DNA of 64,000 bases from an uncultured Victivallales bacterium (GTDB lineage: Bacteria; Verrucomicrobiota; Lentisphaeria; Victivallales; UBA1829): contig CALXSJ010000004.1 in the NCBI GenBank assembly GCA_944391115.1, forward strand, positions 101,957-165,956. Direction: 5' to 3'. Position 1 is the stretch's first letter. Every line of letters starts with the position of its first letter. This document shows positions 24,067 through 44,074 of the stretch, piece after piece. The position numbers were made by a program, and so were the translations under genes. The notes below the pieces were generated by a model. The model did not search any database, was not told where the DNA came from, and was given only the letters and a program-made list of their open reading frames with translations.

Positions 24067-24366
24067 ATGGATACTGTATGGATCGCAGTCCGTTTTCTGA
24101 TTCTGCTTGCCGTCACAGCCGCTGCGCTGAACACGGCCATGTTTCTGGCAAACGTCCGTGTGCGTTCAACGATGTCGGTTTCCATCGCCCTCGGGCTGTT
24201 CTGCTCGGTCTTTCTGATGATTCCCTGGATCGGCTGGCTGATCGCCGCGTTCTTCGCGTTCCGCTGTCTGGCGAAACTGACACACTCGCCGCCACTGCCG
24301 GACTCCCTGACCATGGCGGCAGGCGCGATTTTCACCGCACAGCTCTGCAAGCTTCTTCTGTTCTGA
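24067..24366 (+). CDS. Small hydrophobic membrane protein (three predicted TM segments)
   Basis: 99 aa and almost entirely hydrophobic. A perfect GGAGGAG RBS lies 6 nt upstream. It ends 25 nt before the sigma-54 activator gene. Confidence 0.55.
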   Translation: MDTVWIAVRFLILLAVTAAALNTAMFLANVRVRSTMSVSIALGLFCSVFLMIPWIGWLIAAFFAFRCLAKLTHSPPLPDSLTMAAGAIFTAQLCKLLLF

Positions 24367-24391: not shown

Positions 24392-25936
24392 ATGGATCAG
24401 CTGAAAACCGAAATCGCCGTTCTGCAGGAAATCAGTTCCGCCGTAGTCCACGAGCGGAACGTCAGCCGTCTTCTTGACAGGGTGCTCGACATTCTGAACC
24501 GGAAAATGGGCATGGTGCGCGGCACGTTCACGCTCCGGCAGGGAGACCTGTTCATCATTGAAGCCTCGCAGGGGCTTGATGAAAACGAGAAGAAACGCGG
24601 ACGCTACAAGCTCGGCGAGGGAATCACAGGACATGTCGCAGAAACAGGCGTCCCCTGTCTGGTGCCGGACATCTCGAAAGACAAGCGTTTTCTGAGCCGT
24701 ACGGGAAAACACCAGTTCGACAGCAATCCCGTCGCATTTCTCTGCGTTCCGGTCATCCAGGACGAACGCGTGATCGCCACGCTCGGCATTGACCGCAAGG
24801 TGGTTCCCGGCGTGCAGCTGGACGAGGATCTGAAACTCCTGGAAATCATCGGCAATCTGATGGCTGACGCGGTCGCGGTTTACCATCAGGAGCGGGAGGA
24901 ACGGGAGAGTCTGCTGGAAGAAAACAAACGCCTGCGCGAAGCGCTCACGGAAGGCGGGAATCCCGGAGAACTGATCGGCAACTGCCGGGCGATGCAGAAT
25001 ATTTATGCGCTGATCCGCCAGGTCGCCGCCAGCAATGCCACCGTGCTGATCCGGGGAAGCTCCGGAACCGGCAAGGAACTGGTCGCAAAAGCGATCCGTC
25101 AGCTCAGCACGCGCGCGGACAAACCGTTTGTCACGCTGAATTGCGCCGCACTGCCGGAAAATCTGGTCGAAAGCGAACTCTTCGGTCATGAAAAAGGAGC
25201 GTTCACCGGCGCGGTCAGCCGCAGAATCGGGCGCGCCGAGGCGGCGGACGGCGGCACGCTGTTTCTGGACGAGATCGGCGATCTGAGCCTGCCTGTCCAG
25301 GTCAAGCTCCTGCGTTTCATTCAGGAACGCACCTTCTCGCGGATCGGAAGCAACGAGGAGATCCGGACCGACGTCCGGCTTCTGGCCGCGACCAGCCGGA
25401 ATCTGGAACAGCTGATGGCGGAGGGGAAATTCCGCGAAGACCTCTATTACCGCCTGAACATCTTCCCGATCCTCCTGCCGGACCTCTCCAAGCGCAGAAG
25501 CGACATCGTTCTGCTGGCGGAACATTTCATCGCCAAGCACAACCTGCGTTACGGCAAACATGTCAAGCGCCTTTCCACCCCGGCGGTCAACATGCTGATG
25601 GCGTATCACTGGCCGGGAAATGTCAGAGAGCTGGAAAACTGCATCGAACGTGCCGTTCTGACCGCCTCGGATGACTGCATTCACGGTTACAATCTGCCGC
25701 CCTCGCTGCAGACCGGAAAAGAGGCCGGCTATGAACTGCTCCCCGAAGGAAAGGCATCCTTCAACACGATGGTCGAATCCTTTGAGCGGGAGCTGATTGT
25801 CGAGGCGCTGAAGAAAAACCGCGGCAACATGTCCGCCGCCGCGCGCGATCTCGATCTCTCCCCGCGTGTCATCCACTACAAGATCAACAGCTACGGCATC
25901 ACACCCGAATGGTACCGCCGCAAACAGGATGAGTGA
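24392..25936 (+). CDS. Sigma-54-dependent transcriptional activator (GAF + AAA+ + Fis-type HTH; NifA-like architecture)
   Basis: GAF-like N-domain. AAA+ core with Walker A GSSGTGKE, the GAFTGA loop (EKGAFTGA) and Walker B LFLDEIG. C-terminal [23 protein letters not shown]. Confidence 0.9.
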
Positions 25937-26030
25937 CATCCTTGCGGTCACGGCTGGACGCGTGCCGCCTCGGCATGACATTCGCACGGATGTTTATTTT
26001 TCGGAACGTTTATAAACATTAAAACTTTTT

Positions 26031-26057
26031 ATATTTGAAATATTATATTTTAAATAT
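26031..26057. promoter_or_regulatory. Two adjacent copies of the palindrome ATATTT-N-AAATAT
   Basis: ATATTTgAAATAT at 26031-26043 and ATATTTtAAATAT at 26045-26057, 14 bp centre to centre. A further perfect 10-bp palindrome, GTTTATAAAC, lies at 26008-26017. Confidence 0.4.
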
Positions 26058-26110
26058 GTAATCAATCAAAGTATTTTTGAGATATTCCATTCATAACAAA
26101 TATATTTTCC

Positions 26111-26140
26111 TTGATTTTCCGAGTTTGTCCAATATATTAT
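26111..26140 (+). promoter_or_regulatory. Sigma-70-like promoter candidate for the ECF sigma/kinase pair
   Basis: TTGATT (26111-26116), an 18-nt spacer, then TATTAT (26135-26140), inside the AT-rich island. Confidence 0.35.
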
Positions 26141-26183
26141 AAAATCATTAAAAATCGTTTCTTTTCCGTGGAGATTCAGCAAC

Positions 26184-26738
26184 GTGAGTTTTACAACACA
26201 TCCCAGTGTCGTCCGGAATCTAAAGGACGGGAGAAGCGAGGCGTGGAACCGCTTTTTTGAACTCTACGCGCCGCTGATCCGCCTGCATGGCAAAGACTGC
26301 GGCATTGACGACGATTCGCTGGACGATCTTGTCCAGAATGTGATGATGTCGGTCTTCCACAGCAGCGCACGCTTTGAATACGATCCGGCGAAAGGCCGTT
26401 TCCGGGATTATCTCCGCTTCATCATCCGGGCACGCGCCAACGACATGCTGCGCGCCAGATACCGCAGGGTGAATCCGCAGGAAATTCCCGCCGTCGAAGA
26501 ATGTCTGGATGAACTCTACTCCGCGGAATGGGAGGAACACGTCCGGACCGAAAGCCTGAAAAAACTCAAGGCGGACATTCTTGCGCGGCATTATCAGATT
26601 TTTCATATGCTTGACGTGCAGAACCGGAAAGTCAGGGATGTCGCGCGCTTCTTTCAGATGTCGGAAGCGTCCATCTATTCCATCCGGAACCGGACAGAGC
26701 TGAAACTGCGCCGGATCGCGGAACAAATGGACGTCTGA
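26184..26738 (+). CDS. ECF-type sigma-70 family sigma factor
   Basis: GTG start with GGAG 10 nt upstream. Region 2 (DDSLDDLVQNVMMSVF, FRDYLRFIIRARANDMLR) and region 4 HTH (RKVRDVARFFQMSEASIYSIRNRTELKLRR). Confidence 0.85.
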   Translation: MSFTTHPSVVRNLKDGRSEAWNRFFELYAPLIRLHGKDCGIDDDSLDDLVQNVMMSVFHSSARFEYDPAKGRFRDYLRFIIRARANDMLRARYRRVNPQEIPAVEECLDELYSAEWEEHVRTESLKKLKADILARHYQIFHMLDVQNRKVRDVARFFQMSEASIYSIRNRTELKLRRIAEQMDV

Positions 26739-26739
26739 C

Positions 26740-27567
26740 ATGCCGGACACCAGACCGAAAATCCCGAATTTCACTCTTGTGGAAGAGTGCGGGCGCGGCT
26801 CCATCGGCAGTGTCTGGCTCGCCGTCGATCCCGACGGAATCCTCCGCGCCATCCGCCTTGTGAATCTCTCCGATCCCGCAAACCGGGAAAGAATCGAAGC
26901 CGAGGCCCGCGCAATCACGCTCTACCGCAATGCGGCCGATCACCATCCGAATCTGCTCGACATTCTCTACGTCGGACGCACAGCCAGACATCTGTATTAT
27001 GTCACAGAACCCGCCGACAACGCGGCGCCATCCTCATGCACATACCGAGCGGACACCCTTGCGGACCGCCTGGAGAGACGCCCGTATTCCGCAGAGGAAA
27101 CACGCGGATATATCGAAGCTCTTCTCAATGGCGTCGAACACCTGCATAAAAATCGTCTGGCGCACCGAGATCTGAAACCGGAAAACATTCTTTTCATCCG
27201 CAATGAACTGAAAATCGCCGATCCGGGCCTTTCCGGCTCCATTGCGAAAATTTCCGAATCCGGAACCGAGGAATTCCGCCCGCCGGGGCGCACAAGCGGC
27301 GAACAGGCGGATTTTTATGCAATCGGCAAAATCATTTACTGCCTCTACACCCGCAGAAATGCGGACCGCTTCCCGGAAATCCCCGAGGAAATCGAGATCC
27401 GCTCCATCGCCGCCTGGAACGAAATCGCGCTGAAATGCTGCGGAGACGGCGCGTCGTCCTACCGCAGCATCGCGGACATCCGGGCGGACGTCCGGAAAGC
27501 CGGCAGTTCATGCCGCTGGAGAGAAATTCTGCGCCGCACCGGGCAATACGCGTTCCACGGACTTTGA
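26740..27567 (+). CDS. Stand-alone Hanks-type Ser/Thr kinase-like protein (atypical ATP-site residues)
   Basis: Gly-loop GRGSIGSV, catalytic loop HRDLKPENILF and subdomain IX DFYAIGKIIY are present. The VAIK position reads LRAIR and DFG reads DPG. Starts 1 nt after the sigma factor stop. No TM segment or extra domain. Confidence 0.85.
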   Translation: MPDTRPKIPNFTLVEECGRGSIGSVWLAVDPDGILRAIRLVNLSDPANRERIEAEARAITLYRNAADHHPNLLDILYVGRTARHLYYVTEPADNAAPSSCTYRADTLADRLERRPYSAEETRGYIEALLNGVEHLHKNRLAHRDLKPENILFIRNELKIADPGLSGSIAKISESGTEEFRPPGRTSGEQADFYAIGKIIYCLYTRRNADRFPEIPEEIEIRSIAAWNEIALKCCGDGASSYRSIADIRADVRKAGSSCRWREILRRTGQYAFHGL

Positions 27568-27581
27568 CGTTTGCCGACGGC

Positions 27582-28094
27582 TCAGTCCACCCGGGCGGCG
27601 CGGATGATTGTCACCGTTTCAACGGGAACATCGTCATGTCCGGCCTTGGAACAGGTGGAAAGCTTTTCAATTTTGTCGACCACATCCATCCCCTCCACGA
27701 CCTGTCCGAAAACACAGTAGCCGAATCCGCGTGGCGTGTTGTCCTGATGATCGAGGAAATCGTTGTCGACCGTATTGATGAAGAACTGGCAGGTTGCGCT
27801 GTCGATCACGCCGGTGCGCGCCATGGCGATCGTGCCGCGCTTGTTGGACCCGCCGTTCGCGGCCTCGTTCCGGATCGGCGGAAGCGTCGGCTTCGGAGAC
27901 ATGTCGGAAGTCAGGCCGCCGCCCTGGATCATGAAGCCGGGAATGACCCGGTGGAAAATCGTGTTGACGTAATGTCCGGACTTCACATAGGCGAGGAAAT
28001 TTTCCACCGTCACAGGCGTATCCTTTGCAAACAGTTCCAGCGTGATGGTTCCGAGGGTGGTTTCGATTTCGACTCTGGGGGCGTTCTCACTCAT
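27582..28094 (-). CDS. Cyclophilin-type peptidyl-prolyl cis-trans isomerase
   Basis: 170 aa. [14 protein letters not shown] and [12 protein letters not shown] motifs. No signal peptide. Confidence 0.9.
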
Positions 28095-30914: not shown

Positions 30915-30930
30915 TGGCATCAGGTTTGCT
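30915..30930 (+). promoter_or_regulatory. Candidate sigma-54 (-24/-12) promoter upstream of dnaK
   Basis: TGGCATcaggtTTGCT matches the TGGCAC-N5-TTGCW consensus with exact GG-to-GC spacing. The -12 GC lies 54 nt upstream of the dnaK ATG. Confidence 0.55.
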
Positions 30931-42651: not shown

Positions 42652-43944
42652 TTACCGACCGGAACGCCGGACGGATGGAACAGCCTGGCGGAAGGCTCCG
42701 GAACGCCGGATCTCATATCCGCCGGCACGATTCTGCCGCAGGATAACCCTGCCGGAACTTTCAGCGCCGCTCCGGACCGGGGCCTGCCGGACGGCAGTAA
42801 CCTGCGAAGAGCCGGGCCGCCCGCTGTTCTGCCTTGCCGCAGGTCTGCTCTCCTGCCGGACGGTAATCTGCGAAGTGGTCGTGCCCGGTTTTCCCGGACG
42901 AGCCGGCTTTTCAGGACGAGCCGGTCTGTGAGGGCGGTCCGGTCTGTGGGGACGGTCCGGTCTGTGGGGACGGTCCGGTTTTCCCGGAGGCGGCGGGCGA
43001 TGCGGCGGACGATCCGGATGGAAGCGGTTCCACCATGCCACGGGGGCAAAATTGCCGGATATGAAATAAACCCCGTCGCCGACAAAACCGTAATAGCTGC
43101 CGAACGGATAATAAGTGATGGTATTGCCGTCCGTCCATTGATCGGGAACGGTCCGGGTCTGTTCCGCAGGAGCGGCGGCATCCTGCGATGCGGGGGCTGC
43201 CTGATCCGGCGCAACGTCGGAATCCTTTCCGGAATTGTCGTTCTTTTCCTTCCCCGCCGCGGCATATTCGGCATAGATTTCCAGATATTTTGTCAGAATC
43301 TCGGCGGAATCGTCCAGGTTCCCCGTAAAAACCGGAATCTGTTTTTTCTCATAGACAGCCTTCATGCCGGTGGGATAGAGGAAGCCGCTCCATGATCCTT
43401 CCGCGGGCAGATGGACGCCGTCCACAAGAACAAGTTCGGACTGGATCGGACGGCCGGAAACAACCTTGTCGATTTTCACCACGCAGCCGGTTTTCGTATC
43501 CTTGACCGGAGTAATCTCCACGGAACGGCGCCATGCATGAATGGCATAGCGGAGATCGGCCGGCTTGAGTGTGATTTTTTCGCCGGCGAACTTCGCCTTG
43601 ATCTGTTCGGTAATGCGCTCCAGACGCGTTTTCTCCTCGTCGGCGACCTTCTCGATGTCTTTTCCCTCGTATTTTCTGACCTCGGTTTCAAATTTTCTGC
43701 TTTTTTCCGGATCGTAACCGAATTTTTTCTGAAGCTCTTCCGGAAGATCCTGAAAACGCAGACCTTTCAGGACATAATGTCCCTTCTCGTTGACATAGCC
43801 GATGTCAATTCCGTCAGGATTGACTCTTTCCAGGCGGGCGTCTTCAAAAACCTGTCCGCTCCGGGTGGTGATATCCATCGTTTCAGCAGCAAGCGCGGCG
43901 GCGAAGAAAAAGAAGAAGAAAAACAGAATCAGCGGTTCTCTCAT
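42652..43944 (-). CDS. Secreted hypothetical protein with Pro/Arg/His hexapeptide repeats and a basic C-terminal tail
   Basis: ATG at 43944 has an AAGGAGG RBS. Signal peptide MREPLILFFFFFFFAAALAAE. C-terminal region reads GKPDRPHRPDRPHRPDRPHRPARPEKPARPGKPG. No family recognised. Confidence 0.6.
   Translation of the reverse strand: MREPLILFFFFFFFAAALAAETMDITTRSGQVFEDARLERVNPDGIDIGYVNEKGHYVLKGLRFQDLPEELQKKFGYDPEKSRKFETEVRKYEGKDIEKVADEEKTRLERITEQIKAKFAGEKITLKPADLRYAIHAWRRSVEITPVKDTKTGCVVKIDKVVSGRPIQSELVLVDGVHLPAEGSWSGFLYPTGMKAVYEKKQIPVFTGNLDDSAEILTKYLEIYAEYAAAGKEKNDNSGKDSDVAPDQAAPASQDAAAPAEQTRTVPDQWTDGNTITYYPFGSYYGFVGDGVYFISGNFAPVAWWNRFHPDRPPHRPPPPGKPDRPHRPDRPHRPDRPHRPARPEKPARPGKPGTTTSQITVRQESRPAARQNSGRPGSSQVTAVRQAPVRSGAESSGRVILRQNRAGGYEIRRSGAFRQAVPSVRRSGR
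42897..42985. repeat. In-frame 18-bp tandem repeat inside the secreted protein gene
   Basis: GGTCCGGTCTGTGGGGAC is repeated exactly at 42936-42953 and 42954-42971, with degenerate copies on both sides. It encodes the PDRPHR units. Confidence 0.75.
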
Positions 43945-44074
43945 CAGAAGGCCTCCTTTCAAGCAATGTCCGTCCATGGTAACTTAACCCTTCGCGGCGG
44001 TTTTGCAATCCCGCATGTCCTGATTCGGATCGTTTCAAACCGGAAAAATACGGCATTCCGCAACGGGTCCGCCC

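Follow-up and report, generated by a model that had tools for sequence, protein, structure and literature searches.

The stretch of DNA considered here (hereafter the window) comprises 64,000 nucleotides of an uncultured Victivallales bacterium (assembly GCA_944391115.1, contig CALXSJ010000004.1, positions 101,957 to 165,956 of the forward strand), and carries two adjacent genes coding for an extracytoplasmic function (ECF) sigma factor and a minimal Hanks-type protein kinase. The two genes, and the motifs within them on which the argument leans, are as follows.

26184..26738, forward strand: ECF sigma factor gene (GTG start, 184 amino acids)
26316..26336, forward strand: region 2.2 core-binding motif of the sigma factor, S45-L-D-D-L-V-Q51, placed by profile alignment to SigE DAEDLTQ
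26736..26742, forward strand: sigma/kinase junction TGA-C-ATG, with stop and start 1 nt apart
26740..27567, forward strand: Hanks-type kinase gene (ATG start, 275 amino acids)
26791..26814, forward strand: Gly-rich loop of the kinase, G18-R-G-S-I-G-S-V25, with an invariant C17 just before it
26854..26856, forward strand: Arg39 (codon CGC) at the position of the β3 VAIK lysine, within LRAIR (residues 35-39)
27163..27186, forward strand: catalytic loop H142-R-D-L-K-P-E-N149, with D144 and N149 invariant and R143 variable in relatives
27220..27228, forward strand: D161-P-G163 (GAT CCG GGC) replacing DFG, with the Mg-binding Asp kept and Phe changed to Pro, within ADPGLS (residues 160-165)

The first-pass annotation of this DNA had described an ECF sigma gene followed after 1 nt by a kinase gene, with no anti-sigma gene, and both the coordinates of the two open reading frames (ORFs) and the Pfam searches agree with it. 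The ORFs flanking the pair encode a sigma54-dependent activator and a cyclophilin, so that no anti-sigma gene stands beside the ECF gene (Pfam), and in the downstream protein no anti-sigma domain was found, matches at E values up to 0.1 being to kinase families only (Pfam). No other ECF or kinase paralog occurs within the 64-kb window. As read from the sequence, the 1-nt junction implies translational coupling of the sigma factor and the kinase. An ECF sigma factor whose co-transcribed partner is a Hanks kinase and not an anti-sigma factor is an association known for several ECF groups, and genomic ECF-kinase linkage without an anti-sigma factor has been published for ECF43, ECF59-62, ECF217, ECF267 and ECF283 (PMC7826278). 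The module is a two-gene ECF sigma/Hanks kinase signalling unit, within this known class of kinase-linked ECFs lacking anti-sigma factors.

The kinase matches Pkinase over residues 12-207 (Pfam, E 1.2e-26), and AlphaFold2 (AF2), run with 24 homologues, models it confidently as a complete kinase fold (pLDDT 88.6, pTM 0.86), which Foldseek places with the canonical eukaryotic protein kinase (ePK) fold at E ~1e-14 and TM ~0.71 to AMPK/MARK, Aurora and S. aureus PknB. All of the strings that the annotation had picked out in it are present, namely GRGSIGSV, LRAIR, HRDLKPEN, ADPGLS and DFYAIG, the last at residues 191-196. In Aurora A, B and C, phmmer aligns R39 with the Lys of VALK and P162 with the Phe of DFG, and the K-to-R call is the same in three alignments (phmmer against Aurora, the MAFFT family alignment A1, and an hmmalign of 150 representatives); alignment with Hanks kinases, which had been proposed as a check, thus confirms Arg at β3 and Pro at DFG. 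Beyond what had been noted before, the Glu of the APE motif is also lost, the window kinase reading ...FRPPG where Aurora reads ...LPPE. Neither Arg39 nor the short length is a sequencing or assembly artefact, because a 99%-identical protein of 275 amino acids (P0001) occurs on four contigs, one of 424 kb, and R39 is found in 23 of the 24 homologues of A1; two further proteins, 83% and 73% identical to the window kinase (P0002 and P0003), are of the same length class. Two other readings of the kinase were tried and rejected. A WNK-like relocated lysine is not supported by A1, in which the kinase N-lobe has no other invariant Lys, and matches to the defence-system kinase families MADS6 and PglW (NCBIfam) lie far under their cut-offs.

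When 1.84 billion representatives were searched exhaustively with a profile, 2815 proteins were obtained at E values up to 1e-30, of which the best 150 were aligned. Among these best 150, about 30 form a sub-clade of Victivallales and the wider Planctomycetes-Verrucomicrobia-Chlamydiae (PVC) group that is marked by CGxG ... DLKPEN ... DPG ... KCC and usually by the lack of Glu at APE. The remainder are mostly proteins of 400-1500 amino acids with RAVK ... HRD[IV]KPSN ... DIG ... PPE ... KAC, and the DxG motif of this outgroup family is DIG or DVG. The closest genome matches are an uncultured Victivallaceae metagenome-assembled genome (MAG) and UMGS1182, followed by Verrucomicrobiota MAGs, and the matches by themselves make a Victivallales/Lentisphaerae-like member of the PVC superphylum the most likely source of the window. 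At the β3 position the DPG clade has R in about 19 representatives and K in about 11, and nothing else. With a mean column identity of 34%, A1 shows no change at C17, G18, G20, A37, H142, D144, K146, N149 and D161, and conservation of at least 90% at V25, E55 and L151. Across the ~30 clade representatives the catalytic Asp, the Asn and the DxG Asp are unchanged, the catalytic-loop Lys is changed solely in the divergent P0159, conservation extends to V25, A37 and L151 of the adenine pocket, and every Arg-bearing member keeps an acidic αC residue, which is mostly Glu and in three cases Asp. The DPG motif itself is near-universal in the clade and invariant in A1. More variable are the HRD Arg (R/H/C/N/G/S/L) and the APE equivalent, which reads PPG, PPW or PDR, most members having no Glu there. 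In a neighbour-joining tree, which is rough and carries no support values, the K groups are basal and one K group, including the sigma-linked kinase of locus L009, nests among R lineages; at least two switches between K and R are thus indicated, as is functional equivalence of the two residues at β3. Arg39 and DPG are accordingly conserved in orthologues, in a clade that holds either R or K at β3. The earlier remark that Lys-to-Arg is the classic kinase-dead substitution does not transfer simply to this family, in which K and R alternate on an otherwise invariant catalytic core.

The absence of a transmembrane (TM) helix or sensor domain, also remarked upon before, is borne out by hydropathy (Kyte-Doolittle, 19-residue means), which reaches at most 0.95 in the window kinase versus peaks of 1.5-2.7 at about residues 265-290 in its relatives. 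In long clade members (477-572 amino acids) the kinase is joined to a TM helix (about residues 265-290) and to a TPR-like domain at the C-terminus; in intermediates of about 290 amino acids a hydrophobic tail is all that is kept, and the window kinase and its closest relatives are without even this tail. Judged from these architectures, the minimal kinase is a derived, reduced soluble form of a kinase-TM-TPR receptor kinase, and its small size, no design feature of the family, reflects derived loss of the TM helix and the TPR-like sensor domain. In close relatives that fall outside the DPG clade the sensor domains are of CHASE2 or cyclase type; both these and the kinase-TM-TPR forms are typical sensor-kinase architectures. 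No sigma-kinase fusions were found among the representatives, their N-terminal extensions being CHASE2, cyclase or a second kinase domain. Compared with the orthologous locus L001, the kinase has a dN/dS of 0.23 and the sigma factor one of 0.11. The synteny shared by the window and L001 stops precisely at the kinase 3' end, the site of the lost C-terminal tail, and in L001 (7087-8520) the kinase is followed by a 477-amino-acid protein without a Pfam match and then by MIF and an OYE-family reductase.

A lack of such pairs beyond this genome had been named as something that would refute the annotation, but the pair does recur. In counts drawn from 12 kinase and 10 sigma contexts, the sigma gene lies directly upstream of the kinase gene in six other loci (L001/L002, L007, L008, L009, L088 and L089), at sigma identities of 47-83% and kinase identities of 46-74%. 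The L001/L002 kinase is 74% identical to that of the window and has the same neighbours; those of L007 and L008, two near-identical loci, are ~50% identical and have neighbours unlike those of the window; that of L009, from a Victivallaceae MAG, is 46% identical; and L088 and L089 were found from the sigma side, at sigma identities of 58% and 53%. Flanking genes are unrelated among the paired loci, L007/L008 apart. Stop and start are spaced 0-2 nt apart in five of the six loci and 23 nt apart in L009, the orthologous junctions reading TGA-A-ATG, TGA-CC-ATG, TGAATG and TGA-TT-ATG. In addition, distant DIG/DVG kinases (31-34% identity, from Verrucomicrobiota and other MAGs) have an ECF gene within ~2.5 kb in L010, L011, L012 and L091. 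Three sigma homologues (L090, L091a and L092) stand without a kinase beside them.

Two contexts differ in arrangement. In L091 (4001-7356), one MAG contig holds two ECF sigma genes of the broad family back to back, the second of which (206 amino acids) is directly 3' of a 626-amino-acid kinase with canonical K, DVG and PPE, an order that is the reverse of that in the window. The sigma-less kinases P0011 and P0009 stand in a conserved dUTPase - kinase - ThyX arrangement (L003, 4903-7671, and L096), and in L003 a second kinase of 403 amino acids lies just beyond ThyX. On sequence context, this branch suggests a different role tied to nucleotide metabolism.

The sigma factor is an ECF (group 4) member, scoring 51.6 bits with TIGR02937 against a cut-off of 42.9 and matching Sigma70_r2 of Pfam at E 3e-8. 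TIGR02989, a Rhodopirellula/Verrucomicrobium family, matches it at E 2e-4, far under its cut-off. A search of the PDB with the single sequence returned no match; with the family profile, the solved ECF sigmas RpoE, SigE, CnrH, SigW and SigH were matched. The AF2 model has two helical domains (sigma2 and sigma4) at pLDDT 83 and a low-confidence linker at residues 97-109. The string SLDDLVQ, singled out in the first-pass annotation, is present at residues 45-51, and profile alignment places S45-L46-D47-D48 on D-A-E-D of M. tuberculosis SigE. Among 93 family sigmas, position 45 varies (N in 34, Y in 12, D in 11, S in 10), an acidic residue (D or E) stands at position 47 in 92, and D48 is kept in 91 and Q51 in 92. 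In R. sphaeroides SigE, a sigma factor paired with a classical anti-sigma factor, DAED position 1 likewise holds a non-acidic residue (Gln). That the Ser of SLDDLVQ marks a phosphorylatable region 2, as had been proposed, is not supported, since S45 varies and positions 3-4 stay acidic; S45 was rejected as a phospho-acceptor on the ground that it corresponds to DAED position 1 and varies across the family. The linker, EIPAVEECLDELYSAEWEE, is already acidic as well, like region 2.2. The hallmark of ECF43, a non-acidic region 2.2 with Thr at position 3, was sought in the window sigma and is absent from it.

The window sigma belongs to a subfamily, here called type A, that reads MSFTT[HR]xS..., LHGxDCG and LDDLVQ and takes in every kinase-linked member. 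Type B sigmas read MKF[VTI]TDY[D/E] and include one member known to lack a kinase, in L090 (4001-7619), where the type-B sigma P0069 (48% identity, Glu8) is followed, in place of a kinase, by a 952-amino-acid protein that has a signal-peptide-like N-terminus and gave no match in Pfam. Position 8 is thus Ser in type A and Asp or Glu in type B. On sequence this contrast looks like a phosphomimetic signature, and it is kept as a lead only. In the AF2 model the first helix starts at residue 7, and T5-x-x-[S/D/E]8 fits a capping box; the idea of Ser8 as phospho-acceptor, with D/E8 as its phosphomimetic, was downgraded because it draws on a single type-B context (L090) and because the capping box offers an alternative. 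In the LHGxDCG motif, C39 (26298-26300) is found in 84 of the 93 family sigmas, and H35, G36, D38 and G40 are also conserved. The kinase likewise has invariant or near-invariant cysteines, C17 (26788-26790) in CGxG and C233 and C234 (27436-27441) in KCC, where the outgroup reads KAC. From these residues, a redox- or metal-dependent contact between the kinase and the sigma factor is conceivable.

Of the kinase-linked ECF groups, ECF43 is the one whose mechanism is known, from the pairs EcfP-PknT of V. parahaemolyticus and EcfK-PknS of X. citri, in which the sigma factor is phosphorylated directly (PMC8999054, PMC13147305). In ECF43, STTA or QTTA replaces the acidic DxxD of region 2.2, and phosphorylation of the Thr at position 3 switches the sigma factor on; in EcfK a linker Thr is also phosphorylated, at a position that is acidic in ordinary ECFs (PMC8999054, PMC13147305). 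The window resembles ECF43 in having an ECF gene next to a Hanks kinase, no anti-sigma factor, and long kinase relatives that are transmembrane receptors. It differs in that its sigma factor keeps D47/D48 and the acidic linker, and its kinase has neither TM helix nor sensor; PknS has been described as typical among Hanks-type kinases, with the canonical fold (PMC13147305), whereas the window kinase reads R and DPG and is missing the APE Glu. Comparable, by their published descriptions, are ECF59-62, ECF217, ECF267 and ECF283, with a conserved neighbouring kinase, usually no anti-sigma factor, and a DAED-like acidic motif. The named representatives of ECF59, 61, 62 and 217 are planctomycetes, i.e. 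PVC (PMC7826278, PMC8999054), and the mechanism of the kinase-linked groups other than ECF43 is uncharacterised, the charge-switch model of EcfP being inapplicable to them as the acidic motif is kept (PMC8999054). No statement that the kinases of ECF59-62, 217, 267 or 283 carry a β3 Arg or DPG was found in the literature.

A β3 Arg can accompany ATP binding, as in KSR1, EphB6 and the ActPs2 and DYD proteins (PMC12599244). In ActPs2 and DYD the Arg is conserved, and AlphaFold3 models suggest that ATP binding is retained (PMC12599244; bioRxiv 10.1101/2025.01.12.632604). In contrast to these, K and R alternate in the window clade. ActPs2 has the HRD Asp changed to Asn and DFG deleted, whereas HxD Asp, Asn and DxG Asp are all retained in the window clade; DYD has no αC Glu and the motif DYD, whereas the window kinase has an αC Glu and DPG. 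Both are actinobacterial or firmicute proteins, unlike the window kinase with its nearest genomes among Victivallaceae and Verrucomicrobiota MAGs, and sigma factors go unmentioned in the papers describing them (PMC12599244; bioRxiv 10.1101/2025.01.12.632604).

Upstream of the pair, and immediately downstream of it, the following features are found.

24392..25936: sigma54-dependent activator (GAF-AAA+-HTH_8), upstream of the sigma gene
25940..26183, forward strand: AT-rich intergenic leader of 244 nt, upstream of the sigma gene
~26005-26014: palindrome GTTTATAAAC in the leader
26111..26138, forward strand: candidate housekeeping-type promoter TTGATT-N16-TATATT, ~45 nt before the GTG start, a 9/12 match to consensus
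27582..28094, reverse strand: cyclophilin peptidyl-prolyl isomerase, the next gene 3' of the kinase, convergent with it

The leader is very AT-rich compared with a genome of ~57% GC, and the orthologous L001 spacer is similarly AT-rich. It contains 7 promoter-like sites in 25940-26183, where 1.2 are expected from shuffles, and gave no structured-RNA match in Rfam. In the eight loci compared by eye, all eight show a TTGAC/TTGAT -35 box and a TATATT/TATACT -10 box 40-60 nt 5' of the sigma start, these boxes being consensus matches only and no proof of function. No recognisable ECF-type autoregulated promoter was found in the loci compared. With housekeeping-type boxes and no recognisable ECF-type promoter, the pair does not seem to be primarily under autoregulated transcription. 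Control of the pair by the upstream activator through sigma54 was rejected: 25940-26183 has no site like TGGCAC-N5-TTGC, and the activator is syntenic only in L001. The same palindrome as in the leader occurs in L001 as ATGTTTATAAACAT, ~170 nt upstream of the L001 sigma start and thus at a similar distance, and may be the operator of some regulator.

Further away, a 99-amino-acid, very hydrophobic ORF (24067-24366, forward strand) lies directly 5' of the sigma54-dependent activator and is kept in position and length in L001 (3317-3616). At 30915-30929 (forward strand), a near-perfect sigma54-type promoter, TGGCATCAGGTTTGC, with one mismatch to TGGCAC-N5-TTGC, stands ~55 nt before the likely real dnaK start; sigma54-dependent dnaK expression is a possibility suggested by this site, a sigma54 activator (24392..25936) being encoded 5 kb upstream. 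On the reverse strand, an ORF of 441 amino acids (42652-43977) begins with a signal-peptide-like N-terminus, and a Pro-rich repeat stands at its C-terminal end, (PDRPHR)n with PARPEKPARPGKPG after it.

The first-pass annotation had left a choice between a pseudokinase acting as a binder and a kinase with a non-canonical ATP site that phosphorylates a Ser/Thr-bearing region 2. The sequence evidence leans to the active kinase, so that the second option stands as to the kinase and falls as to region 2 as its target. In the mechanism we propose, the sigma factor and kinase genes would share one transcript, apparently started at a housekeeping-type promoter, and be translationally coupled; if the two proteins are made together, control of the sigma factor must therefore be post-translational. 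The kinase would be a soluble descendant of kinase-TM-TPR receptors with an atypical site (β3 Arg, DPG, no APE Glu), in which purifying selection nevertheless keeps each residue that ATP binding and phosphotransfer require. Arg39 would pair with the conserved αC Glu55 in place of Lys, and the kinase would phosphorylate its partner sigma factor and thereby modulate its activity; it is the catalytic competence of the kinase, the sigma factor as its substrate and the direction of regulation that we infer here. Phosphosite and sign of the effect would not be those of the region 2.2 Thr switch of ECF43, because the sigma factor keeps its acidic core-binding residues. An active atypical kinase is favoured over a dead one because the β3 residue is only ever R or K, the catalytic core is near-invariant and dN/dS is ~0.23. 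We give about an even chance to the proposal that ATP binding and phosphorylation of the sigma factor both persist in this kinase, with Arg39-Glu55 in place of Lys and with a phosphosite other than the ECF43 Thr.

Several points weigh against this proposal. Engineered K-to-R replacement is usually strongly inactivating, and changes to the activation segment cluster in this kinase, with the DFG Phe changed to Pro, the APE Glu lost and the HRD Arg variable. The window kinase is also without its sensor domain. In the sigma factor, no conserved, clearly phosphorylatable residue was identified, S45 being variable and T5-x-x-S8 equally well a helix capping box, and region 2.2 and the linker already carry their acidic residues. 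Five clade kinases (P0009, P0011, P0020, P0022 and P0024) have no adjacent sigma gene. Lastly, loss of the β3 Lys alone makes a pseudokinase by the standard operational definition (β3 Lys, HRD Asp or DFG Asp absent), under which the window kinase falls through its β3 residue, as a label of sequence (PMC12599244; bioRxiv 10.1101/2025.01.12.632604).

The strongest competitor, which we consider possible though clearly less probable than an active kinase, is that the protein is a true pseudokinase and a kinase-fold anti-sigma factor, binding the sigma factor stoichiometrically and holding it inactive, perhaps with nucleotide as a conformational switch. Its appeal is that the β3 Lys and DFG Phe are replaced and the APE Glu lost, and that the sigma factor, with acidic residues at 47/48 and in the linker, looks competent for core binding in a locus where no anti-sigma gene is present. 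The promoter looks constitutive, and a sigma factor that seems intrinsically competent and is constitutively co-expressed would need a negative regulator; the tight translational coupling also suggests 1:1 production, as for sigma/anti-sigma pairs. Classical anti-sigma factors (ASD/ZAS-TM-sensor) are likewise encoded directly 3' of, and coupled to, their ECF genes, and the long relatives of the window kinase mirror their layout of a cytoplasmic binder, one TM helix and an extracytoplasmic sensor domain; the difference is that the cytoplasmic part is here a complete protein-kinase fold. KSR orthologues vary between K and R, keep the catalytic-loop Asp, and work in a stoichiometric complex with a partner. 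As a precedent for a K-to-R scaffold, KSR1/2 have Arg for the VAIK Lys and keep ATP binding (PMC12599244), but they are eukaryotic members of the RAF family with no link to a transcription factor, so that the comparison is an analogy only. What speaks against such a role is that, over identities of 39-99%, hardly any change is seen in the catalytic base D144, in K146, which is the mark of a Ser/Thr-kinase catalytic loop, or in N149 and D161, although a pure binder needs none of them, that no non-basic β3 residue appears, that five clade members have no adjacent sigma gene, and that no signature of an anti-sigma domain was found (Pfam). A fuller form of the same idea, in which the kinase domain would act as a 1:1 anti-sigma factor through an Arg39/Glu55 nucleotide switch, membrane-tethered in the long relatives, soluble and sensor-less here, and possibly gated by cysteines (C17 and C233/C234 of the kinase, C39 of the sigma factor), is a little less probable again and should be taken as unlikely.

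A phosphorylating kinase could also act on proteins other than its neighbour. In this case the two proteins would be operon partners without direct regulation, for example through co-expression as an output or through a shared stress response, the (semi-)active kinase serving other substrates and the sigma factor being controlled transcriptionally or by proteolysis. Clade kinases without a sigma gene, in dUTPase/ThyX and other housekeeping contexts, the existence of sigma homologues without a kinase, and the lack of an identified phospho-acceptor in the sigma factor all fit this account. However, the order of the genes and their 0-2 nt spacing have lasted through extensive divergence and changed neighbourhoods, ECF linkage is also seen in the distant DIG kinases, and direct control has been published for two other ECF-kinase pairs (PMC8999054, PMC13147305), which leaves mere co-residence in an operon rather improbable. 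That the kinase is a decaying remnant, drifting out of function after loss of its TM and sensor domains with K-to-R as part of the decay, might be read from the stepwise C-terminal reduction (~530 amino acids with TM and TPR, then ~290 with a hydrophobic tail, then 275 and soluble) and from the break of L001 synteny exactly at the kinase 3' end, but is largely refuted and very improbable, as the ORF is intact in independent assemblies (P0001, P0002 and P0003), dN/dS is 0.23, R39 predates the truncation, being found in the full-length receptor forms of L008, L088 and L089, and all catalytic residues are intact (A1).

What is new here is the combination of ECF-coupled DPG kinases of the PVC group, a β3 residue that switches back and forth between K and R while the catalytic core stays intact, and a sigma factor without the ECF43 switch. 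How kinase-linked ECFs outside ECF43 are controlled is an acknowledged open question (PMC8999054), for which this clade offers a compact and tractable case of 184 and 275 amino acids, both proteins being soluble. The alternation of K and R on a fixed catalytic core constitutes a natural experiment on the VAIK-Lys rule. If it is true that the Arg forms are active, they would be a natural exception to that rule as it is used in pseudokinase annotation; if they are inactive, the window protein would be the first kinase-fold anti-sigma factor. Either outcome would refine the annotation of bacterial kinomes and ECF regulons, above all in gut Lentisphaerae and Verrucomicrobiota, groups that are known almost exclusively from MAGs.

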